DNA of 64,000 bases from a virus: the IMG/VR virus record IMGVR_UViG_3300037264_001719, positions 18,332-82,331 of that record. One strand, written 5' to 3'. Of this stretch, positions 1,124 to 64,000 are shown piece by piece. The notes under the pieces were generated by a model, which was not told the origin of the DNA, ran no database searches, and saw only the letters and a program-made list of their open reading frames with translations. The first letter of the stretch is position 1; every line of letters begins with the position of its first letter. Both the position numbers and the translations under genes were made by a program.

Positions 1124-3030
1124 TCGATAAAAACGGAACGACATGGCCGGAGGAGGACGTGCGTAACGCCGTCCTTCTCAAGAAAGTCGATCCGTCCTCG
1201 ATGGAAGACCTCGTGAAGGTCATGCTCTTCGGAAAAAGTCACGAGGATGCCGAGAAGACCAGCGAAGCCGAGATCAAATCCCGCCAGCTTACCGAGGACC
1301 CTTTCGGCGCGTTGGCCGCAGGGGAATTCGTCCCCCCGAAGTACAAGCCCGATATTTGGGCGCAGGCTCCCGCACAGAACACCCGTCTCGCCCGGTGCAT
1401 CCGCTCTTTCGCTCGGAACACCGTGGGGCTCGGATGGCACATCGAACCGCTTCATCCGGTGACGCCGGACACTCCCGAGGAAGAGAAGCGGGAGATCGCG
1501 TGGCAGACGGAGGCGCTCCGCACCATCTTCAATTTCCCGAACGAGAAGATGCCCCTCACCGAAACCGCCTATCTCATGAAGTGGGATGAGGAGGCGACGG
1601 GGAACGGGTACTGGGAAGTGGTTCGGAACAACGCTGGAAAAATCACCCGCATCTATCATGCGCCTGCCGTCACCATGCGGAAGCGCGTCATGAAGGGTGA
1701 GGGGGACGGGCTGACGGCGATCTACGGGTTCATCCAGATTCGCGGAAACCAGAAGCGTTATTTCAAGGAGTTCGGTGACAAGCGCGTGATGAACGCGAAG
1801 ACGGGGAAGTGGCACGACGGAGAATCTTCGCTCCCCCCGGAGGATCGGGCAACGGAGATCGTCCCCTTCCTCATTTACGATCCGACCTCCTCCTACTATG
1901 GTGCGCCCCGCTACGTCCCGTCCTCGACGGCCATCGCGGGGAATCGTCAGTCGGCTCTCCGCAACGTGACCTTCTTCGAGAACGATGCGGTGCCGCGCAT
2001 GGCCCTCCTCGTCTCCGGCGGGCGTCTCACGCAGGAGTCCACTCAGCAGATCGAGGACTTCATGCGCGGGAAGGGGAAGGGCGGCGGGGATCAGGTCCAC
2101 CGGGTCATGATTATCCAAGTGGAGCCCTCGAAGATCGGCTTCCAGCAGCAGAACAAAACGATGGTGGAGTTGAAGCCGCTCACCGTGGGCGTCACCGAGG
2201 ACGCGAGCTTCCAGACCTACCGCGCAGCCAACGACGAAGAGGTGCGAGAGGTCTTCGGGCTTGCGCCCGTCTTCTTCTCGACGGAGAACGTCAACAAGGC
2301 TTCGGCGGCGGTCTCCCGCGAGATCACCAACGAGCAGGAGTTCGAGCCCGACCGTCTCGCCAAGGAATACATCATCAACCAGACCATTGTGTCGGACATC
2401 CTCTGCGCCCTGATGGGGAACAACCCCATGACCGAGGACGAGCCCGACGCTATGGTGGAATACCGGAAGAAGATCAGGGTGCAGTTCCGGTTCGCCCGGC
2501 TCACCCTCACCGATCCGCTCGATCAGGCGAGAATGGACCAGATTTACGCCTCGCTCGGGGCCATGACGCCGAACGAACTCCGCGAACGGATCGGGAAGCC
2601 CCCGTTCCCCAAGGATTTCTTCTTCGCGGACAAGCCGCTCCCGATTGCGATGGCGGAACTTTCAGCGAGCCTCGCCCTCGTCATCGAACTCAAGGACGAA
2701 CAGAAATTCCCGCCGCCGCCTGCCGCGCAAGGAGCGCCGGGGGCGGAAGGAATGCCCCTGCCGGACGGCATTGAGCCGATGGGCGGCGATGAACCTCCGC
2801 AGGGGGCGCAGGTCGAAGCGCCGTCTCCCGGGGAGTCGCCGGAGATGCCGAATCCGCAGGACAATCCGAGGCCCTCGGAACCCAAAACTGCGCGTGCGAA
2901 TTTTTCCAGAAGAAGCTCGAAAATGTCCCCGGGAGTTTTGTATGCTATCGCGTCGGACCTGATGGCAGACGCTCGGAGATTGGCGACTTCCTTCAACAGT
3001 ATCCGAGACGGAGGGAGAAACGATGAGTAG
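1120..3030 (+). CDS. phage portal protein
   Basis: TGNGYWEVVRN, YYGAPRY, FFENDAVP, MTPNELRERIG portal motifs; start set at ATG 1120 by translational coupling; Pro/acidic C-terminal tail. Confidence 0.9.
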   Translation: MIDKNGTTWPEEDVRNAVLLKKVDPSSMEDLVKVMLFGKSHEDAEKTSEAEIKSRQLTEDPFGALAAGEFVPPKYKPDIWAQAPAQNTRLARCIRSFARNTVGLGWHIEPLHPVTPDTPEEEKREIAWQTEALRTIFNFPNEKMPLTETAYLMKWDEEATGNGYWEVVRNNAGKITRIYHAPAVTMRKRVMKGEGDGLTAIYGFIQIRGNQKRYFKEFGDKRVMNAKTGKWHDGESSLPPEDRATEIVPFLIYDPTSSYYGAPRYVPSSTAIAGNRQSALRNVTFFENDAVPRMALLVSGGRLTQESTQQIEDFMRGKGKGGGDQVHRVMIIQVEPSKIGFQQQNKTMVELKPLTVGVTEDASFQTYRAANDEEVREVFGLAPVFFSTENVNKASAAVSREITNEQEFEPDRLAKEYIINQTIVSDILCALMGNNPMTEDEPDAMVEYRKKIRVQFRFARLTLTDPLDQARMDQIYASLGAMTPNELRERIGKPPFPKDFFFADKPLPIAMAELSASLALVIELKDEQKFPPPPAAQGAPGAEGMPLPDGIEPMGGDEPPQGAQVEAPSPGESPEMPNPQDNPRPSEPKTARANFSRRSSKMSPGVLYAIASDLMADARRLATSFNSIRDGGRNDE

Positions 3031-4660
3031 CCCCATCGAGGCAAGATTCGAGTTCGATGCCCTCTGCGAGAAGGCGTGGCAGGACGAAAAGGGAAAGATG
3101 TTCGTCCGCGCCGTCGCCAGCGATGACGGCCTCGATCTCCAGCGCGACCGGATGAGCACGAAGGCGCTTCAAAAGATGGCCGAGTCCGCCAAGATCGGCC
3201 TCCCCTTCTTGGAGACGCACCGCTCGGTCTTCGAGTTCGGGAAGACCACGGGCGGCGAGATCGTCGCCATGAAGGACAAGGACGGGAAGACCGTCAATCG
3301 GTTCGTCGTCGAACTCGAACTCGACGGCGACTATCCGCAGGCCCGGAAGCTGTTCAAGGAAGTCGCCTCGGGAAACTGCAAGCGACAGCTTTCCATCGGC
3401 GGCAAGCTCAACCTCAAGAACCGCGATGCGGTGTCCGTCGAGATGACGCCGAGCGGCCTCTCCCGCACGATCCACGACCTCGAACTCGATCACATCGCTT
3501 CGACCCGCGAGAAGCAGGCGGCGAATCCCCGGACTTCTTTCACGGAGGCGGTCGCCAAGGCCCTCGACGCCGCCGAGAAGGACGGATGGACAGGGATCGA
3601 GAAAGAGGGAGTGGTCACGACCAAGAGTGATGACGAGATCGGCAAGGACTTCCTTTCCCTGTTGGGGAAGACCGTCCGCAAGTTTGGAGGAAATCCGATG
3701 CTCACGAACACCCAGAAGCTCACGAAGGAAGGGGAAGGAATGCCGCCCGTGCCGCCTGCGGATGCCGCCGCGCCGGAGGAGACCACGCCTCCCGGCGAGG
3801 AGACCACGCCTGCGACGCCGGACGGGATGACCCCCCGGAACACCGACACCCCGAAGACGCCGAAGACGCCGCCCGAGGCGTTGGCGATGGCTCCGGGGGC
3901 CGAGAAGGGCAGGCTCCCCACGTCCGCGCAACTCGCGCAGGACATCGCCACGCTCCTCTCCAAGAGCAAATCGGCCCCGGGAAATCAGGTGTACAACTCG
4001 CTCTGGACCCTCCGCTATGTCGTGGCGAAGGACGCGGGCGAGGCCGGGGCGAAGATCACGGAGAGCGGAGTTTTCGCTCCGCGTGATCTTTCCGGCGCGA
4101 AGCCCGGAGTGCAGGACGACAAGACCAAGAAGGGCGATCCGGGCGACGTGGGGAACAGCGCGGTGACGGATCACCGCCGGAACATCCATGTCGGCGGCGA
4201 GGAAACCTCGAACGCGCCGACCGCCAAGGACGCCCTCTCCATGACCATGCAGAGCCTCTCGGAGCACTCCAAGTTGCCGCAGGTGGGCGAGGGCGACGGC
4301 TTCGGAAAGAGCTTGACGAACGAAGCTCTGGAGAAGACGATGGCGGGCTGGTTGGAGAAGTCCACAGAGGTTCAGAAGTCCCTCCTCATGGCGACGGTCG
4401 AGAGACTGACCGAGGACCGCGAGAAGGACATCGTGGAAGTGAAGAAGTCGGTGGATCAGGTCGGCGGGCTGGTGAACGACGCCGCCAAGCGCCTCTCGGA
4501 AATGGAAGCCCGGATCGTCCGGGTCGAAAAGTCCGGCGGGGTGAGCCAGAGCGGAGCACGGGGAGTGAAAGACTCCTCGATTCCTGCGCCCGAGCGGAAG
4601 GGCGGAACTTGGGGTGGCCTCTTCGGAAAGGCCGCAAGCGAAGCCTTGAGTCGTTACTAG
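3023..4660 (+). CDS. prohead maturation protease fused to scaffold-like C-terminal region
   Basis: VASDDGLDLQRDRM, LETH, QLSIGG, ELDHIAST..AANPRT motifs of HK97-type prohead proteases; low-complexity linker then coiled coil; lies between portal and capsid. Confidence 0.85.
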   Translation: MSSPIEARFEFDALCEKAWQDEKGKMFVRAVASDDGLDLQRDRMSTKALQKMAESAKIGLPFLETHRSVFEFGKTTGGEIVAMKDKDGKTVNRFVVELELDGDYPQARKLFKEVASGNCKRQLSIGGKLNLKNRDAVSVEMTPSGLSRTIHDLELDHIASTREKQAANPRTSFTEAVAKALDAAEKDGWTGIEKEGVVTTKSDDEIGKDFLSLLGKTVRKFGGNPMLTNTQKLTKEGEGMPPVPPADAAAPEETTPPGEETTPATPDGMTPRNTDTPKTPKTPPEALAMAPGAEKGRLPTSAQLAQDIATLLSKSKSAPGNQVYNSLWTLRYVVAKDAGEAGAKITESGVFAPRDLSGAKPGVQDDKTKKGDPGDVGNSAVTDHRRNIHVGGEETSNAPTAKDALSMTMQSLSEHSKLPQVGEGDGFGKSLTNEALEKTMAGWLEKSTEVQKSLLMATVERLTEDREKDIVEVKKSVDQVGGLVNDAAKRLSEMEARIVRVEKSGGVSQSGARGVKDSSIPAPERKGGTWGGLFGKAASEALSRY

Positions 4661-9845: not shown

Positions 9846-10118
9846 ATGGCGGAAGTCAAGAAGCGTCGCGTGGCCGTTCCGGGCCATATGATGCAGTCGA
9901 TCAATCTCGACACCGCAGACAAGCTGGGCCGGAGGGAGAGCCTCGTTCTCGCCCCTCGTGCCCCCGTCGAGATCACGGAGGCGCAGTACCGGAGCCGGGA
10001 GTTCCAGAAGCTCCTTGCCCGAGGATACGTCGTGGACCTCACGGCGGCAGACGAGCGGCGGAAAGAGATCGAGGCACGGCAGGCGGGGGCGAAAGCCTCC
10101 GTGATCCCCGCCCCCTAG
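9846..10118 (+). CDS. small hypothetical protein preceding sheath
   Basis: AAGGAG RBS, 90 aa, typical pre-sheath position. Confidence 0.7.
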   Translation: MAEVKKRRVAVPGHMMQSINLDTADKLGRRESLVLAPRAPVEITEAQYRSREFQKLLARGYVVDLTAADERRKEIEARQAGAKASVIPAP

Positions 10119-10151
10119 TCAGGTAGTGCTCGGGCGAGTGATGCCCCGAGG

Positions 10152-10179
10152 TTGAAGTTCCGGCACGGTGAGGTATGAT
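10152..10179 (+). promoter_or_regulatory. putative promoter for sheath/tube genes
   Basis: TTGAAG-16 bp-TATGAT, preceded by a CTCGGG...CCCGAG hairpin (10129-10150). Confidence 0.4.
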
Positions 10180-10230
10180 ATGGAGGAAAAGCGAATCCCT
10201 CCTAATGAGATGAGCAAGGGGAGTTAAAAA

Positions 10231-12243
10231 ATGGCCCTCGCTGGAATCGAAACTCTACACCCCGACGTTTTCATCATCGAGGAGCGCGGCATTCCGCGCA
10301 TCATCGGCGTCGGAGTCAACACGGGAGGCTTCGTCGGTGCGGCCCAAAAAGGCCCCATCGACCGCGCCGACCTCGTGACGAACACCACGCAGTTCGCGGA
10401 GAAGTACGGTACTTTCTTCCAAGGCTCCTACCTCGAACCGTCCGTTCGTGCCTTCTTCCAGCAGGGCGGGACGAGGTGCTTCATCTCCCGAGTGATCGGG
10501 CTCGGTGCGACCGAGGCGGATTCGGCCCTTGCCAACCACGAAGGGACGCCCGCCATCGACGTGAACGCCATCTCGCCGGGGGCGTGGGGTAACGACCTCA
10601 CGCTCACGACCGAGCGTTGGCGGACCACCATCGCCCCGCCCCCGCCCTCCTCGGGCATTCCTGCCGTGGGCAACGGGTCCATCGACATCCCGGTCTTCTC
10701 CCTCCGCAACGTGAAGATCGGGGACCTCATCCGCATCGTCGATTCGGTCTCACTCAACGAGATCACGGCGTTCATCTACGCAATCAGCGTCGGCCTGCGG
10801 ACCCTTCGCGTCCGGGCCATCGGGGGCCTGCCTTCCGGGTTCACCTTCCCGGTCGGAAGCCTCGTCCATTCCGCGACGGATCACCGCCTCAATACGCTTC
10901 TCGACGAAGACCTCGTGAACGGGGCGATCAGCGTTCTTCTCAAGAGCACGTCCAACCTCGGGATCGGCGCAAGGGTCTACTTCGACAACGGCCTCAATTT
11001 CGCCACGGTGCTCGTTGAGGGCATCGACGGGCGGCGCATCAAGTTCTCCCCCGTCTCGATCACGGCAGCGGCGACGCTCCCCGAGGACACGACCATCGCC
11101 GTGTCGCAGGAGTTCAACCTCAAAGTTTTCGAGAGGGGCAAGTTCAGGGAGGGCTTCGACGGTCTCTCGATGGAGTTCACCAACACCCGGGACTACCTCG
11201 TGACCCGGCTGTCCGGTGAATCCAACGAATCCAAGGTCATCGAGGTCGTGGACCTTCTCGCGCCCGTGCTGGACACTCTTCTCGCCATCCCCCTGCCCGT
11301 CTCGGGGCAGGTCTTCAACGGAGGGACCGAGGGCGCTCCCATCACGGATGCCGACTTCATCGGCTCCGAGGAGGAGCCCAAGAGCGGAATGTTCCTTCTC
11401 GACGAGCAGCCCGAACTCAACTTCTTCTCGATCCCCGGAGTCACGTCGGTCGTGGTGGAGAAGGAGGCGGCGGACTTCGCGGATCGCAAGGGGAACATCA
11501 TCGCGGTGCTCGATGCTCCGTTGGCGGACGACGAACCTCTCGAAGTGCTCAACTTCCGCAACATCGAACTCAACGTGGACACGTCGTTCGCGGCCCTCTA
11601 CTACCCGTGGGTCATCGTCCGCGACCCCTTGCAGGGGGATCAGCGGGTCGCCATGCCCCCGTCCGGTCACGTTCAGGGCAAGTACGCCGAGACGGGGATC
11701 ACCCGGGGCGTCCACTTCGCCCCGGCCAACGTCCCCCTCCGTGGTGTGCTCGATCTGACGCACAACACGTCGGACGGGGAGCACGACCTCCTCAACCCGG
11801 CGGGCGTCAACGTCATCCGTTCCTTCCTCGGGGAAGGCATCCGCATCTTCGGGGCGCGGACCCTCTCCTCCTTCAAGGACGGGCGGCACTACGTCAACGT
11901 CCGGCGACTCCTCAACTTCGTGAAGGAGTCGCTCCGGCGCGGGCTCCGGTTCGCCATCTTCGAGTTGAACGAGCCTCGGACGTGGACGACGATCACGCTG
12001 TCGGTCGAGGAGTTCCTCCGTTCGATGTTCCTCCGGGGGCAGTTGTTCTCCCCGGACGGCGATCCTCGCCGGGCGTTCTTCGTCAAGTGCGACGCGGAAA
12101 CGAACCCGACCAGCGAGATCAGGGAAGGTCGTCTCAACGTCGAAGTCGGAGTCAATCCGCCCTTCCCCGCCGAGTTCATCGTTGTCAGGCTCGGCGTCTT
12201 CGACGGCGGCTCCACCATCGAAGAGGAACTGGCGAGAAGGTAG
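10231..12243 (+). CDS. contractile tail sheath protein
   Basis: HPDVFIIE, GFVGAAQKGP, AFFQQGGTRCFI, AALYYPWV, PPSGHV, APAN, LNPAGVNVIR, GARTL, YVNVRR, FELN, FFVKCD, PAEFIV. Confidence 0.97.
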   Translation: MALAGIETLHPDVFIIEERGIPRIIGVGVNTGGFVGAAQKGPIDRADLVTNTTQFAEKYGTFFQGSYLEPSVRAFFQQGGTRCFISRVIGLGATEADSALANHEGTPAIDVNAISPGAWGNDLTLTTERWRTTIAPPPPSSGIPAVGNGSIDIPVFSLRNVKIGDLIRIVDSVSLNEITAFIYAISVGLRTLRVRAIGGLPSGFTFPVGSLVHSATDHRLNTLLDEDLVNGAISVLLKSTSNLGIGARVYFDNGLNFATVLVEGIDGRRIKFSPVSITAAATLPEDTTIAVSQEFNLKVFERGKFREGFDGLSMEFTNTRDYLVTRLSGESNESKVIEVVDLLAPVLDTLLAIPLPVSGQVFNGGTEGAPITDADFIGSEEEPKSGMFLLDEQPELNFFSIPGVTSVVVEKEAADFADRKGNIIAVLDAPLADDEPLEVLNFRNIELNVDTSFAALYYPWVIVRDPLQGDQRVAMPPSGHVQGKYAETGITRGVHFAPANVPLRGVLDLTHNTSDGEHDLLNPAGVNVIRSFLGEGIRIFGARTLSSFKDGRHYVNVRRLLNFVKESLRRGLRFAIFELNEPRTWTTITLSVEEFLRSMFLRGQLFSPDGDPRRAFFVKCDAETNPTSEIREGRLNVEVGVNPPFPAEFIVVRLGVFDGGSTIEEELARR

Positions 12244-56729: not shown

Positions 56730-56897
56730 ATGCCGACCAAGAAAGACGGCCCTCCAGCCTGTGCGTTCTGCGGGATCGAACTCAAGGATGGCAAGTGCCA
56801 AGAATGCGGCGGATGGACCGACAGTTACGGCCTCTTCCACAGACGGGAGTGCGGCGGCGGGTTCCACGAGAAGTGTGAGGAGAAACTCAAGTCGTGA
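56730..56897 (+). CDS. zinc-finger microprotein (55 aa, not in ORF track)
   Basis: MPTKKDGPPACAFCG...KCQECGG...ECGGGFHEKC; coupled to next gene. Confidence 0.6.
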   Translation: MPTKKDGPPACAFCGIELKDGKCQECGGWTDSYGLFHRRECGGGFHEKCEEKLKS

Positions 56898-57943
56898 GAA
56901 AACTGATCCCCGCGTCCGAACCGACCAAGACGGAACTCATCCGAGAGGCCCAAGAGTTCTTCTCCTCCCTCGTCTCACAACTCTTCGAGAAGGAGAAGGT
57001 CGTGCCCACTTGCGGGCGCGGGTGCGCGGCGTGCTGTTACGAGCCCGTGTACGTTGAGAGGACGGAGGCGGGAATCGCCATCCACGCCTTGAAGCAACTG
57101 CCGCACGCCCGGCAGAGGGAGATCAAGCACAGGCTCCGCGAGGTGGTCGAGAAGTTCCGGGCGTCCGAAGTCTTCAAGGCCCGGATGCCCCGGGCGGTCG
57201 AGTATCGGAAGCTCGGGCTCGCCTGTCCCTTCCTCGACCTCAAGACCCGGGACTGCATGATCTACAACAGCCGCCCCTTCGGGTGCCGTGCCCACTTCGC
57301 GGTCTCCCCTCGGGTGAACTGCGAAGACCTCACCAAGCACGACGACATCATGCTTGTCAAGCCCGGACCCGAAGTGGACCTCCTCATGGGGAAGGCGATG
57401 TTCGACTCCGGGCATGGGGAGATGGATCACTTCGTCCTCCTTCTCGCGGAGGAACTTTTCGGGGAACAGATCGAGAGCGGCTCCCGGGAAATCTACGGGA
57501 ACACCGACGACGAAGCGGAACTCTGGAGGCGAGCCATGAGCGCACTCGTGATCGACGAGCAGGCCAAGGCGCAGGTCAAGGAAGTCCTCGACTTCGCCTC
57601 GAAGCGGGAGAACTGGCGGACGTTCGGAGAGGGGGCTCCCCCGGGCGAGAGGCCGGGATACGTCACACAACTCACTCGCTTCCGGTGCGTCTACTCCGTG
57701 ACCATCATGAACGGCCTGCCCTTCCGCCATTTCTCCCTCTCCGTCCCTCAGAATCTCCCCCACCCCATCGTGACGTTCACCATCGCCAAGATGTTCGGGT
57801 TCACCGGGGGAGAGGAGCAGGGAACGGGCGAGGACGCCACGGTGGTTGGTCCCGGCCCGGACTGGCAGATGGGGCCGCATCAGGACGAGCGGGCCATCGT
57901 CATCGTTCAACGACTGCCGGAGGAAACGAGCCATGCCTCGTAA
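56894..57943 (+). CDS. YkgJ/CxxCxxCC Cys-cluster protein fused to a second domain
   Basis: CGRGCAACC, ACPFL, CMIYNSRPFGCR. Confidence 0.8.
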   Translation: MRKLIPASEPTKTELIREAQEFFSSLVSQLFEKEKVVPTCGRGCAACCYEPVYVERTEAGIAIHALKQLPHARQREIKHRLREVVEKFRASEVFKARMPRAVEYRKLGLACPFLDLKTRDCMIYNSRPFGCRAHFAVSPRVNCEDLTKHDDIMLVKPGPEVDLLMGKAMFDSGHGEMDHFVLLLAEELFGEQIESGSREIYGNTDDEAELWRRAMSALVIDEQAKAQVKEVLDFASKRENWRTFGEGAPPGERPGYVTQLTRFRCVYSVTIMNGLPFRHFSLSVPQNLPHPIVTFTIAKMFGFTGGEEQGTGEDATVVGPGPDWQMGPHQDERAIVIVQRLPEETSHAS

Positions 57944-59479: not shown

Positions 59480-60196
59480 ATGAAAGCAAAGCGAATCAAG
59501 ACCGACGAGAAGTGCCAGCGATGCAACGAGCGCGTCGCACAGTACGTCGTCGAAATTTTCGGGGAGACACTCTGCCTCCCCTGCTACCAACTCCTCCAGA
59601 TCGAGAACGACCGGAAGCCCACGGGGAAAGGCGAGGTGCTGGTCTACGACCACGCTGGCACGGACGCGACCAAGTTGGTTCAGAAGTGGGCTGAGGAGAC
59701 GCTCGCTCCGTTCAAGCTCGGGAACACGACTCTCTACGTCACGCTCAAGACTTCGCGGATCAAGGAGGGCGACGTGTGCCTCAAGTTCCGCGAGCCGAGG
59801 AGACCCAAGCACAAGCGGAACTGGCATCGGTGGATCGAGGGCCGTGTGCTCGTGCGCGAAGACCTTGCGTACCCGCACGAGAAGAAGATCGCAGTCTCGA
59901 CTTGCAAGATCATCGATCCTGTTGCGAAAGCGTTCCTGCCCCCCGGGGACAAGGGCTGGTTTTACGAGTACGATACGGTGACGTTCAGCGACGCCGCCGA
60001 AGCCTTCGCGTGGGGCGCGGGTTACGTTATGTTCAAGTTGCTCCGGCTCGTCAAGGCCGTGCCCGGTCTCGCCACCAAAGTCGGATGTCAGCGCGAGGCC
60101 GGGGTCTTCCTCAAGAAGTTCAGGGAGTGGCGAGGCAAGAAGCATCAGACCTCCAGCCGGAAGAAGACCGATCAGCCGCTTGCGTTCGTGGGGTAA
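59480..60196 (+). CDS. hypothetical protein with N-terminal Zn finger
   Basis: CQRC...LCLPC. Confidence 0.65.
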   Translation: MKAKRIKTDEKCQRCNERVAQYVVEIFGETLCLPCYQLLQIENDRKPTGKGEVLVYDHAGTDATKLVQKWAEETLAPFKLGNTTLYVTLKTSRIKEGDVCLKFREPRRPKHKRNWHRWIEGRVLVREDLAYPHEKKIAVSTCKIIDPVAKAFLPPGDKGWFYEYDTVTFSDAAEAFAWGAGYVMFKLLRLVKAVPGLATKVGCQREAGVFLKKFREWRGKKHQTSSRKKTDQPLAFVG

Positions 60197-60198
60197 CA

Positions 60199-60927
60199 AT
60201 GCGCGAAGATAAGACCTGCGTCATCGAGAAGTACGAGACCTCGATCAGCCACTACCCGAACCGGAAGTTCGGGAAGGCCGAGATTCGCAGGTATCGGTCA
60301 ACCTCCCGGGCGACGTACTTTGCCGAGGGGGTCCGGGGCTACCTGTACTATGAGTACCGGAAGCCCGCCACCCTCATCGAACTCAGGATCGGCAGGAAGA
60401 CGTGGATGACTGACGATCCTCAATTTTTCTGGAGCCTCGAACATTTCGCGTCGCAGGCCAAGGGCCGCGTGCTTGTGGCGGGTCTTGGGTTGGGGATCGT
60501 CGTCCACCTGCTCGTCAAGAATCCCGCCGTCACGCAGATCGACGTGGTGGACCGCGAACTCGATGTCATCCGGCTCGTTCAGCCGCTCCTTCCCGACGAT
60601 CCGCGCATTCATGTTCACCATCAGGACTTCTACGAGTGGTGCGACCACGCTTCCATGAACACCGACTACTTTCCCGACACCGTGATTTGGGACTTAGCGG
60701 TGGGCACGGACGGGAAGATCAGCGAGGGCGGGGAGATCGTGGTCGCCGTGCCGCTCGTCGCCGCCCGGTTCATGCCGCTCAAGTGGGATGGCAAGAACTG
60801 GGTCGAGCGGAAAGACTTCAGGCCCTTCGAGATGTTCGTCCACGGTGTTGACCGTGATCCGGTCGGGGAGGCGTTCGTCAGGACGCCGGAGTTCAAGAGG
60901 GTGCGGGCCTGCATCATCGGGAGGTAA
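60199..60927 (+). CDS. spermidine-synthase-like SAM methyltransferase
   Basis: WMTDDP, GRVLVAGLGLG, IDVVD, DVIRLV, WD. Confidence 0.8.
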   Translation: MREDKTCVIEKYETSISHYPNRKFGKAEIRRYRSTSRATYFAEGVRGYLYYEYRKPATLIELRIGRKTWMTDDPQFFWSLEHFASQAKGRVLVAGLGLGIVVHLLVKNPAVTQIDVVDRELDVIRLVQPLLPDDPRIHVHHQDFYEWCDHASMNTDYFPDTVIWDLAVGTDGKISEGGEIVVAVPLVAARFMPLKWDGKNWVERKDFRPFEMFVHGVDRDPVGEAFVRTPEFKRVRACIIGR

Positions 60928-60960
60928 CTCAAAGATGGAACGAATCGAGAAGGAGATCGT

Positions 60961-61281
60961 GTGCCCGAAGTAAGACTTGCGCTCAACGAGGAGGACTTCC
61001 GAAAGCTGGCCTCGGGCCGCATCATCGAGACTGAGATCAGGTTTCGGGACGAGATCATCTGGCTCCAGATCGGCCTCCGCAATATCGGGAACGCGGCATT
61101 GGTAAGGGCGGTGGAAGATGTCCTCAGACAAAGACCGGGAGAACTTCGTCCTGCGGATCGCCTCTTTGAAGAACTCCCCGAAGGAGGGGGAGAAGATGAC
61201 CCGGAAGCGGGGGGAGAGGAAGAAGTGGGTTGCGACATTGAGCCCCCTCCGCAAGCAGGTGCGCCGCCATCAGGGTCGTGA
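60961..61281 (+). CDS. hypothetical protein
   Basis: AAGGAG RBS; acidic tail. Confidence 0.5.
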   Translation: MPEVRLALNEEDFRKLASGRIIETEIRFRDEIIWLQIGLRNIGNAALVRAVEDVLRQRPGELRPADRLFEELPEGGGEDDPEAGGEEEVGCDIEPPPQAGAPPSGS

Positions 61282-61305
61282 AGAAGAACCGATAGAAAGG
61301 AGAAC

Positions 61306-61779
61306 ATGATGCGCCAACTCAAGATCGAACTGCCGACGTTCCAAAACGGGGTTGCCCGGCAGGTCAAGGACTCCAAGGGCCGGAACTGGGAAGTCGTGAG
61401 GGAACTCATGGATGCCGCCGCGCCCGCCGCCGATCAGACGGAGTTCCTTACCCTCAGAGAGGTTCCTCGATGGGACATCCAGATCGAGGGATTCCAGATC
61501 GGGACGGCGGATCACGGTGAGGCGGGAGAGGCGATGCGGCTGGCGTTCAAGGCCGCAGGGCTCACTTCCCTCCCCGAAGCCGTGCTCGTGAAAGCCGTTA
61601 CCCCGGAGGAGCAGTACGCCGTGTTCACGTTGGGCGGGAAGGCGTACTCCGTCCCGCTCAAGCAGTTCTCGGAGGAAGTCGAGAAGTCGGGGGCGTGGAT
61701 CACCGCTCGGCAGGCACGCCGCCCGGAGATCGACGCACTCATGATCGAACTCAGGAAGCTCCAGCAGAGGCGGGCATGA
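61306..61779 (+). CDS. hypothetical protein
   Basis: GAAAGGAG RBS. Confidence 0.7.
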   Translation: MMRQLKIELPTFQNGVARQVKDSKGRNWEVVRELMDAAAPAADQTEFLTLREVPRWDIQIEGFQIGTADHGEAGEAMRLAFKAAGLTSLPEAVLVKAVTPEEQYAVFTLGGKAYSVPLKQFSEEVEKSGAWITARQARRPEIDALMIELRKLQQRRA

Positions 61780-62066
61780 CGAAGCCGAAGACCGGACAGT
61801 CCAAGTCCCCTCCTTCCGAAGAGACGGAGGCGATCCAGATTCGCAGGGATTCCCGGCTCGGGAAGAAGGCCCGGTTCATCCGGGCGGTTGCCGAGTACCT
61901 CGCCGGGAACCAAGCGGGAAAGAGCATCGCCCTCGAAATCGAATCGGGGGGCGGCGGTCCTATGAAGTGGGCGAGCGAGTGGGCGAAGGTCCGTGGGGAG
62001 TCGGGACTGTTCGGCTATCCCACGAGGGAAGAAGCCGAGGCGCAGTTGTGGGAGCTTCTCGGATGA
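61776..62066 (+). CDS. hypothetical protein
   Basis: ATGA coupling at both ends. Confidence 0.6.
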   Translation: MTKPKTGQSKSPPSEETEAIQIRRDSRLGKKARFIRAVAEYLAGNQAGKSIALEIESGGGGPMKWASEWAKVRGESGLFGYPTREEAEAQLWELLG

Positions 62067-62500
62067 ACTCTGTCAGCCTCCCGATCAAGGACCCGTCCCT
62101 CTTCTTCATCTGCCGCCTTTGCACGAAGATGGCCGAGCAAATAGGTCGAGGGGAGACCGTCTGCCATCACCCATGCGGCGGGCCGCGCAAGGGCCGGGCG
62201 TTTCCGTTGTATACCGGGCCGATGGCGAACGCGACCATCGAGACCCATTGTTTCGTCTGCGGTGTGGATGCCGAGAAGAAGCTCAAGATCGGGAACGGTC
62301 TGCGGGAACTCGGGGTGTGCATCAAGCACCTCATCTTCGCAGGGATCGACCCCAAGACCTTGCCCCCTCCCAAGACGGAGGATCGGGGCGTCGTGCAGAA
62401 GCGTGAAGTCCGGCGGGTCAGCATCTACGAGATGCTCAATATCGACCCGGTGAAGGACTTGGGATTCAAGGAGCCGGAACCGCCGGAGGAGAAGAAATGA
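62063..62500 (+). CDS. Cys/His-rich zinc-binding protein
   Basis: CRLC, CHHPC, CFVC, CIKH. Confidence 0.65.
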   Translation: MNSVSLPIKDPSLFFICRLCTKMAEQIGRGETVCHHPCGGPRKGRAFPLYTGPMANATIETHCFVCGVDAEKKLKIGNGLRELGVCIKHLIFAGIDPKTLPPPKTEDRGVVQKREVRRVSIYEMLNIDPVKDLGFKEPEPPEEKK

Positions 62501-62730
62501 GCCCAATCAAATGCCGGAAGTGCGGGAAGAACTTCAAGGGCCGGGAGAACGCCAAGACGCTCGTTCTGCCGATGCACCACGGATGGGTGGACCCGAAGAC
62601 TGCGAAGATGATCTTCTGCGGGACGGCCACGTCCGAGCAGGTCGTCATGTACAAGAAAGCCATCGAGGTGCTCAAGCGGAGGAAGCTCAACCCGGAGGGC
62701 TTCACCAAGATCGAGGGCGGAAAGGCGTAA
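62497..62730 (+). CDS. zinc-finger microprotein
   Basis: CRKC..H..C; GGAGG RBS. Confidence 0.6.
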   Translation: MSPIKCRKCGKNFKGRENAKTLVLPMHHGWVDPKTAKMIFCGTATSEQVVMYKKAIEVLKRRKLNPEGFTKIEGGKA

Positions 62731-62733
62731 GGG

Positions 62734-62964
62734 ATGAGATGGACCTGCCTGCTCTGCAAGAAGCCGCTCAAGCGGATCAACTTCCACAACGTCGAATGCC
62801 GAAACCACGACTTCCCGAAGCAACATCGACTGTGTGGGGTCTGCGTCCCGGTCCTTGTAGACGCCGAGGTCATCCGCTGGCACAACCCGCAGGTAGGGCA
62901 CGTCATGTCGCAGGATGACTCTTGCCCGTCGAGGGAACTCCTGACGGCGGTGAGGTTGATGTAG
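62734..62964 (+). CDS. zinc-finger microprotein
   Basis: CLLC, CRNH, CGVC, H..C. Confidence 0.6.
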   Translation: MRWTCLLCKKPLKRINFHNVECRNHDFPKQHRLCGVCVPVLVDAEVIRWHNPQVGHVMSQDDSCPSRELLTAVRLM

Positions 62965-62975
62965 CGGGCGGTGGA

Positions 62976-63004
62976 TAGACAAAGTAAATTATAGGAGATA
63001 TACT
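62976..63004 (+). promoter_or_regulatory. sigma70 promoter heading the microprotein array
   Basis: TAGACA-17-TATACT with AT-rich spacer. Confidence 0.75.
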
Positions 63005-63040
63005 TCACAACCTTGCGGCGGTGCTGAACGGAGGGAGAAC

Positions 63041-63172
63041 TTGACGGATAAGTGGCGGTGGTTCACGCACAACTGTCTCGCGCATCCCATAGCGGGAGTA
63101 TGCTGGTTGATCGGTCTCGTTCGGCTGGGTGACTGGTTGCACAACGTATCGACTCCGAGGCGTGACTCGTAA
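63041..63172 (+). CDS. 43 aa microprotein (not in ORF track)
   Basis: GGAGGGAG RBS, TTG start, MTDKWRWFTHNCLAHPIAG...DWLHNVSTPRRDS. Confidence 0.6.
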   Translation: MTDKWRWFTHNCLAHPIAGVCWLIGLVRLGDWLHNVSTPRRDS

Positions 63173-63182
63173 GGAGCAAGTG

Positions 63183-63398
63183 ATGGACGGCCCAGTTTCA
63201 TACCCTCAAGACGTGAAAGTGATCCGCGTGAAGCGCGGAGAGAAGGTCGCTATCCAATGGGAGTACACCTCCGCAGATGGTGTCCATGTGCCCCATGTCC
63301 GAGAAGTGTGGGTCTCTGAGGAAGAGGCGGAACTGATCTCGGTGATGGGTGGCCTTCGTCGTTGGTTTCACCAATCCCAAGAAGGGAAGAAGGTCTGA
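63183..63398 (+). CDS. microprotein ending SQEGKKV
   Basis: AAGGAG RBS; C-terminus encoded by repeat copy 1. Confidence 0.6.
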   Translation: MDGPVSYPQDVKVIRVKRGEKVAIQWEYTSADGVHVPHVREVWVSEEEAELISVMGGLRRWFHQSQEGKKV

Positions 63399-63399
63399 C

Positions 63400-63498
63400 A
63401 TGACTTGCGTGTACTGCCGATCCGAAATGATCCTGTATGGGTGGGGACTTGCTATCTGCCCGAAATGTGCGGGACACGAAACCCAAGAAGGGAAGTAG
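63400..63498 (+). CDS. 32 aa zinc-ribbon microprotein (not in ORF track)
   Basis: MTCVYCRSEMILYGWGLAICPKCAGHETQEGK*; bounded by two repeats. Confidence 0.6.
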   Translation: MTCVYCRSEMILYGWGLAICPKCAGHETQEGK

Positions 63499-63505
63499 AC
63501 CAACC

Positions 63506-63670
63506 ATGACGTTGACACGTCGCATTTGGTTGTGGTTCAAGCGCGAGTGGTGCCGCATTGGGCCGGGGCACGATTGGTGCGGGTACGGTGCGCCCCGTGA
63601 CCCGGACGAGCCGATGGTGACATTCTGCCGACGCTGTTTCATGGCCGATACTCCCCAAGAAGGGAAGTAG
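63506..63670 (+). CDS. 54 aa Cys/His microprotein
   Basis: MTLTRRIWLWFKREWC..GHDW...CRRC..TPQEGK*. Confidence 0.62.
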   Translation: MTLTRRIWLWFKREWCRIGPGHDWCGYGAPRDPDEPMVTFCRRCFMADTPQEGK

Positions 63671-63677
63671 ACCAACC

Positions 63678-63911
63678 ATGACTTCAGCGAAGACCGCCTT
63701 CGATGGAGAATGGGTTAAAACGGCCCCGTTGCTCTCTACTCGCTTTGGGGTAGGGGCTGATCCAAGATGTGAAGTATGCAAGCGTATGTCCTGCGCTCCC
63801 CATTGGTACTCGATCAAACGGAAGATTTTCAGATGTACCAAGTGCTTTACGCCAGAATCTTTAGGGGGTCGCAAAACCCAAGAAAGGCACGATGCGAAAC
63901 CCGCTGTTTAA
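63678..63911 (+). CDS. zinc-ribbon microprotein
   Basis: CEVC...CTKC; starts in repeat copy 3. Confidence 0.6.
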   Translation: MTSAKTAFDGEWVKTAPLLSTRFGVGADPRCEVCKRMSCAPHWYSIKRKIFRCTKCFTPESLGGRKTQERHDAKPAV

Positions 63912-64000
63912 TCTCATGTGGGGCCGAGAGGAGTGAAGACCAAGAGCAAACCGAAAAGCTGGGACGGGGAGAGCCGGATATGCACCTCGCCCTACAGGGT

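Follow-up and report, generated by a model that had tools for sequence, protein, structure and literature searches.

A repeat spanning stop and start codons as a proposed boundary for small-gene exchange in an uncultivated sediment phage

The last kilobase of a 64,000-nucleotide stretch of an uncultivated sediment phage (the window; bases 18332-82331 of the 82,331-base IMG/VR virus record IMGVR_UViG_3300037264_001719, classed as linear) holds an array of very small genes joined by a short repeat, here called J, which runs from the five final codons of one gene through a TAG stop codon and 7 nt to the ATGAC that opens the next gene. In phages with 99-100% identical flanks this locus has three configurations, and J is also present on a second contig. 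We consider it probable, on the whole, that J is a short conserved boundary sequence, a patch of homology at which general recombination would swap small genes in frame and ready for expression. The window ends where the contig ends, cutting the array, and the completeness of the record according to CheckV is 51%. The array region is proposed to be a variable, early-type region of this phage.

The elements of the array are listed in order of position (O0 to O5 are open reading frames, ORFs; J1 to J4 are copies of the repeat; GC3 is the GC content at third codon positions; X1, X2 and X3 are sequencing runs whose contigs are compared below).

62976..63004, + strand: promoter candidate, sigma-70-like TAGACA-17-TATACT in an AT-rich patch 5' of the array, by consensus match only
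63041..63172, + strand: O0, candidate leader ORF of 43 aa, TTG start, beginning MTD.., with GGAGGGAG in front; GC3 0.72
63183..63398, + strand: O1, 71 aa, ending ..QSQEGKKV, its last 7-8 residues coded by J1; GC3 0.62
63376..63404, + strand: J1, 23/29 positions; left breakpoint of the X3 replacement at 63404
63400..63498, + strand: O2, CxxC...CxxC microprotein of 32 aa, ending ..TQEGK; GC3 0.59
63482..63510, + strand: J2, exact copy; X1 and X2 contigs stop at 63489, the point of divergence between the J2 and J4 forms
63506..63670, + strand: O3, Cys-containing orphan of 54 aa between two identical J copies, ending ..TPQEGK; GC3 0.74
63654..63682, + strand: J3, exact copy; an X1 contig restarts at 63654
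63678..63911, + strand: O4, 77 aa, zinc-ribbon-like; MT start derived from the junction, tail of 14 aa ending ..KTQERHDAKPAV; GC3 0.51
63866..63887, + strand: J4, degenerate copy; the X3 replacement (63864) and the O2-to-J4 joint of X2 (63874) have their right breakpoint here
63918..64000, + strand: O5, start of the next gene, which leaves the contig

Two copies of the repeat, J2 and J3, match the 29-mer CCCAAGAAGGGAAGTAGACCAACCATGAC exactly (matches in shuffles, 0/100), J1 shares 23 of its 29 positions, and J4 is a degenerate left half whose 11-nt core (63874-63884) equals 63479-63489. These are the copies that a first-pass annotation, made from the letters alone, had placed at 63482, 63654, 63376 and, in partial form, at 63877, and its unit lengths of 106 and 172 nt are borne out, both being 1 mod 3, with 223 following for the last unit from the coordinates. 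Each ORF is intact from the ATG in one J to the stop in the next, as had been noted, but successive genes do not share a frame, each being shifted by +1. The common start MT is found in O2, O3 and O4 as described; of the three proteins said to end in QEGK, O2 and O3 do so, while O1 contains these residues and ends QEGKKV. The gap between stop and ATG is 7 nt in J2 and J3 and 1 nt in J1, where a TGA stands before the ATG of O2. The distance of 10-13 nt from a purine run in J to the ATG is on the long side for Shine-Dalgarno spacing, given the optimum. A fuzzy search of all 82,331 bases on both strands with the full repeat, its halves and its middle found no further J copy at a gene start. In IMG/VR the exact 25-mer and a degenerate pattern of J each returned 0 matches; among JGI metagenome contigs the degenerate pattern gave two single matches (L004 and L005), about the number expected by chance and by eye unrelated sequence, and these were rejected.

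Evidence that gene content changes at these repeats came from other samples. Part of 62976-64000 was found in nine run rows from five studies, all of them sediment metagenomes or metatranscriptomes and one probably the source, and the Logan contigs of four runs (X1, X2, X3 and X6, from four studies) were compared with 60000-64000; the runs X8, X9 and X10, whose shares are small, carry no weight as evidence. The contigs of X2, X3 and X6 run beyond 64000. In X3, a freshwater sediment, one contig of 2,557 nt (record 19) matches 62821-63404 with 0 differences, continues with 406 other letters and resumes at 63864-64000 with 3 differences; the segment 63405-63863, beginning where J1 ends and stopping shortly before J4, is thus replaced, and the contig extends past the window. 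In X2, an RNA library from another study, a contig of depth 22 (record 16) carries 16 letters equal to 63463-63478 followed by 63874-64000, so that O2 leads directly into J4, and the depth of O3 and O4 in this run is 0-4. A second X2 contig departs from the window after 63493 and continues as a third variant of the junction, again ending in ATGA. In the marine sediment X6, O2 lies in different flanks with loose ends at 63399 and 63489. The first-pass annotation had inferred the capture, shuffling or excision of mini-genes, and at contig level near-identical phages from different studies show cassettes gained, lost and replaced at the repeats. Depth in X2, X3 and X6 is 3.8-13.8 in the bin 63484-63617 and 0 in the bin 63618-63751, the parts left uncovered in these runs being no proof of absence.

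J is found on a second contig too. This 10,340-nt contig of X3 (record 20) has a depth of 55.8, compared with about 8-10 for the phage contigs. In flanking DNA that is otherwise unmatched it contains J twice, once exactly, with 5 additional matching bases upstream, and once with 2 differences. From their coordinates the two copies are 154 nt apart, 1 mod 3 like the units of the window, and by eye the loose ends read ..ETQEGK and stop before the first J and MT.. with two Cys after the second. Neither further copies nor the nearby recombinase or reverse transcriptase to which the first-pass annotation had pointed turned up in the 51%-complete 82-kb record; the pair on this second contig are further copies. 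Four metatranscriptomic libraries of one study (X2, X5, X7 and X8) contain parts of 60000-64000 in shares of 0.56-0.16, which may reflect phage activity in those sediments; DNA carry-over is another possible source of sequence in an RNA library, and transcription is not implied.

Could the array, and O3 above all, be a mis-assembly at a contig end, cassettes of co-occurring genomes having been stitched together through the repeat? We hold this to be very unlikely, although several observations speak for it: the array sits at the contig end, along it the depth in X1 drops from 96 to 11, only in X1 is O3 covered to a sizeable depth, and a more abundant other contig carries J. Against this, the O1-J1-O2 and O4-J4-O5 linkages are each found on contigs of independent runs (X2 record 14, X3 record 19 and X6 record 28, the last linking the 3' part of O4, J4 and O5 with 0 differences). 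At 29 nt the repeat is moreover below the word length of the run index, 31 letters, which presumably is also the assembly word length of the Logan contigs, and the J-flanked cassettes would remain real even if their exact order were wrong. Within X1 itself, the contig covering 61686-63489 has a depth of 96 and that covering 63654-63903 a depth of 47.5, about half, and the break at 63489 is the exact point at which the J2 and J4 forms part.

The breakpoints are scattered in and beside J, at 63404, 63489, 63493, 63864 and 63874, and for this reason homologous exchange among variant copies fits better than a fixed site-specific cut. As we picture it, general homology-dependent recombination between J copies would delete, insert or replace the small genes lying between them, with partner copies provided by the same genome, by co-infecting relatives or by an excised circle. 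Two copies in one genome would recombine with loss of the intervening genes, possibly released as a circle, and copies in different genomes or circles would allow cassettes to be inserted or replaced. A crossover inside the stop/start junction would give products in frame and translationally coupled to their upstream neighbour, and because J spans both stop and start, every product would retain intact ORFs. The enzymes could be those of the host or be encoded in the missing half of the genome. We infer homology-driven rather than site-specific recombination from the contigs, as we do the direction of the events and the circular intermediates; no back-joint, such as circles or tandem duplications would leave, was listed among the contigs compared. 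Translation is probably coupled along the array, the downstream genes depending on termination-reinitiation, since the stop lies 7 or 1 nt before the ATG and the purine run 10-13 nt upstream of it.

These same features raise the possibility that J is conserved chiefly for its role in expression, as an element of the SAS kind for termination-reinitiation or ribosome binding, the insertions and deletions being a by-product of selection for intact gene boundaries. J contains a purine-rich stretch and places a stop 7 nt, or 1 nt in J1, before an ATG, and SAS motifs are described ahead of many start codons in Cluster K phages (PMC3203893). We nevertheless regard an element of this kind as a fairly unlikely explanation: neither J nor half of it is found at other gene starts in the 82 kb, its conservation extends 14 nt into the upstream coding sequence with identical synonymous sites, and J-bounded replacements are left unexplained. 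The purine run is also far from the ATG for a Shine-Dalgarno sequence.

The genes themselves speak to the origin of the repeat. The 14-nt coding half of J is identical in three copies, third codon positions included. Eight homologues of O4 were available, five from a collection of 5.8 billion proteins and three from IMG/VR loci (L003, L007 and L008); all eight (57-78 aa) stop 2-4 residues past a conserved CFTP, and the six placed in an alignment (A2) start with MK or MAK rather than MT. The MTS start and the 14-residue tail are accordingly unique to the O4 of the window among the homologues examined, and in the family C31, C34, C53 and C56 are invariant. None of the four O1 homologues, at 75-77% identity, carries QSQEGKKV. 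Because the synonymous sites are identical and the tail is missing from 12/12 homologues, the conservation of J is of DNA and not of protein, and judged from these alignments J is a module of the DNA that does not belong to the genes; for the same two reasons QEGK is unlikely to be the shared functional tag that had been entertained earlier.

GC3 is 0.51-0.74 in O1 to O4, compared with a mean of 0.82 over ten large genes and with 0.91 and 0.83 in the two genes upstream. The lower GC reported by the first-pass annotation is thus clear at third positions, but modest in total GC, which is 0.54-0.57 in the array against 0.58-0.65. Since their GC3 is foreign and their homologues lack the junction-coded ends, the array genes look acquired, with ends overwritten by J, in agreement with the earlier idea of captured genes. 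The single promoter that was also proposed fares less well: the TAGACA-17-TATACT is present at 62976-63004 with 10/12 matches and none was found inside the array, but it is weak as evidence, 1 site being found in 61000-64000 against 0.5 expected. Between it and O1, O0 encodes a hydrophobic, Trp-rich peptide with a strong GGAGGGAG site; its candidacy as an O3 paralogue was rejected, BLASTP giving no significant similarity.

Paired Cys motifs recur in the array. O2 to O4 are Cys-pair, zinc-ribbon-like proteins, with weak Pfam hints below the cut-off and with a CxxC 8-12 codons ahead of the tail in each, and such microproteins may be accessory early or host-interaction proteins. This shared feature is what would be expected of tandem paralogues in which gene conversion had kept the ends alike and the bodies had drifted apart. 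We give this origin very little probability: BLASTP among O0 to O4 and the two upstream genes aligned the junction-coded tails only, with no core similarity, as the first-pass annotation had supposed in calling the ORFs unrelated; O1 lacks Cys altogether; O4 is of a different family from O1, and the tail is missing from all 12 other members examined of these two families; and GC3 varies among the genes.

Searches with the array proteins returned little. A collection of 15 billion proteins contains O1 (on 3 contigs) and the upstream genes, but no exact match to O2, O3 or O4. Neither O4 nor O1 gave a match by tblastn against cultured phages; O1 and its alignment had none in IMG/VR, and the O1 and O4 alignments had none in GTDB genomes. 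O3, queried as a 77-aa extended ORF, had no homologue, and O2 (32 aa) had 0 matches among 1.84 billion representatives, a query too short for this to mean much. A blastn search of 50,697 cultured phage records with 62400-64000 gave no match. The O2 and O3 frames are open upstream through the junction, giving extended ORFs of 49 aa (63349-63498) and 77 aa (63437-63670), and gene callers may choose these versions.

Two of the O4 homologues lie in settings of their own. In L003 (IMGVR_UViG_3300028331_000003, 9935-10312), an unrelated, lower-GC temperate phage contig, the homologue stands between 56-nt direct repeats that are 91% identical; the repeat copies the 5' end of the next gene, by eye a small xis-like ORF before an integrase-like ORF. 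This looks like an insertion with a duplicated target boundary and hints at a related process. In L008 (IMGVR_UViG_3300027881_000034, 1985-3650) a 57-aa homologue, with overlapping stop and start, lies between ORFs of 338 and 160 aa that by eye only are a RecA/KaiC-type ATPase-like and a RuvC-like resolvase gene. Junction repeats as a general trait of the O4 family were considered and rejected, L003 having the 56-nt repeat and L007 and L008 none.

The first-pass annotation had called the system integron-like. An integron is recognized by an IntI-type tyrosine recombinase next to the array and by the attC sites at its cassette boundaries, which are imperfect inverted repeats folding in single-stranded form. 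What the two share is an ordered array: small, promoterless ORFs of foreign composition follow a single promoter-like site, and a repeat marks each cassette boundary. However, attC is an imperfect palindrome, whereas J is not one and is partly coding: no inverted-repeat pair was found at the junctions, and single-stranded DNA folds of three of them had only a 3-bp CCC/GGG stem in common, with z-scores of -0.4 to -2.0. An integron has an integrase, and none was found in this 51%-complete record: Phage_integrase (PF00589) had 0 matches in the 82 kb, although the control matched 14/14 genomes, and Resolvase and RVT_1 had 0 matches as well. Since J lacks an attC-like fold, and neither recombinases of the tyrosine or serine type nor a reverse transcriptase turned up in this partial record, an integron-like nature of the J array is not supported.

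Could J still be the recognition site of a dedicated recombinase encoded in the missing half of the genome, so that the array is a true cassette-capture platform, integron-like in function? The single promoter-like site, the promoterless and foreign cassettes, the presence of J with other cassettes on a second contig, and a record that is 51% complete and stops inside the array are all compatible with it. We judge it unlikely in view of the missing inverted repeat or shared fold, the 0 matches for the three recombinase and reverse transcriptase families, breakpoints that spread over and beside J, and a J that overlaps coding sequence on both sides, which to our knowledge is unlike known att sites. 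In a bolder version J would be a dedicated 'expression slot', the phage array grafting foreign ORFs in frame through a specific enzyme or templated mechanism whose genes lie in the missing half, with a long array, comparable in size to the 10-kb contig of X3, and a pool of zinc-ribbon microprotein cassettes common to different sediment phages. We think this improbable; if true, phages would have in it their own equivalent of the integron, operating on translation units.

Several points count against the homology-patch reading that we prefer. The variants are known from assembled contigs in a single comparison, not from reads, and X1 is probably the source sample and so not independent; O3 and the J2-O3-J3 linkage have sizeable depth in X1 only (O3, 66.6). 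No RecA, RecT, ERF or YqaJ was found in the 82-kb partial record, leaving a phage-borne recombination function unsupported. With no J copy in IMG/VR and chance-like matches in JGI, spread beyond the sampled runs is undocumented. A length of 29 bp is short for efficient homologous recombination, and the reading gives no explanation of how J was first acquired at both ends of a foreign gene.

Some further features of the region complete the description. The consensus scan found no promoter-like site in or beside J1 to J4, and one terminator-like site, at 63507-63522, is present in a single unit only. Just 5' of the promoter-like site, 62497-62964 encodes two small Cys-rich proteins (77 and 76 aa) of native codon composition (GC3 0.91 and 0.83) with weak zinc-finger Pfam hints. 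Farther upstream are a 349-aa protein with a CxxCxxCC zinc/iron-chelating domain (56894-57943; PF03692, E 3e-8) and a 383-aa protein matching a PHROG methyltransferase family (59776-60927; phrog_15480, E 1e-13); the latter and a 157-aa neighbour protein had no relatives in IMG/VR.

It has long been asked how small accessory genes come and go in phages without damage to the neighbours. Short boundary sequences have been proposed for decades and yet are rarely identifiable at mosaic joints (PMC3029335). In the present array such a sequence is visible in several tandem copies, with alternative contents in nature, and the exchanges are built to give translatable genes. Were the mechanism confirmed, the array would be a compact, testable model of in-frame shuffling of microprotein cassettes, and repeats overlapping a stop and a start would be a search key for variable accessory arrays in uncultivated phages. 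A limited search of the open-access literature found no description of a stop-RBS-start (stop, ribosome-binding site, start) junction repeat that mediates cassette exchange.

By analogy, the closest known mechanism is that of the PeSLs (promoter-early stem-loops) of T4-type phages (Arbiol et al. 2010, PMC2839356; Comeau et al. 2014, PMC4122927), regulatory motifs between orphan genes in hyperplastic regions, where recombination is described as leading to insertions, deletions, replacements and mini-circles. In both cases short repeats stand between small orphan genes of a variable region, relatives differ by motif-bounded insertions, deletions and replacements, and the motif carries expression signals that leave recombinants ready for expression; for PeSLs, homologous recombination between copies, possibly through mini-circles, has been proposed (PMC2839356). 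A PeSL is about 100 bp long and intergenic, has a sigma-70 promoter and a stem-loop terminator, and is present in about 50 copies per genome, whereas J has 29 nt and neither of these elements, and 3-4 copies in one array of an incomplete record. Unlike a PeSL, J is a translational junction that overlaps both frames and gives its cassettes a common C-terminal tail and an MT start.

The SAS/ESAS elements of Cluster K mycobacteriophages (Pope et al. 2011, PMC3203893) offer a second comparison. They resemble J as conserved short motifs directly 5' of the starts of a subset of small non-structural genes in one orientation, but they are genome-wide and conserved with gene families across genomes, whereas J, in the 82-kb record, is limited to a single array and reaches into the coding sequence of the gene before it; in the accessible part of that paper SAS are not described as boundaries of insertions or deletions.

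The closest single example, again by analogy, is the mycobacteriophage Island3 (Cluster I), where 18 C-terminal residues and about 50 bp are common to the orphan gp68 and to gp67, the unrelated gene upstream of it, and where the relative Brujita lacks gp68; Pope et al. (2011, PMC3029335) inferred general recombination at short boundary sequences and presented it as the first such case in mycobacteriophages. As there, adjacent unrelated genes of the array share 3' nucleotides and residues, and relatives differ in the intervening gene or genes. Island3 has a single pair of about 50-bp repeats, whereas J forms 3-4 tandem 29-nt copies that include stop, spacer and start, and goes beyond Island3 in having several alternative contents in environmental populations and in being present on a second contig.

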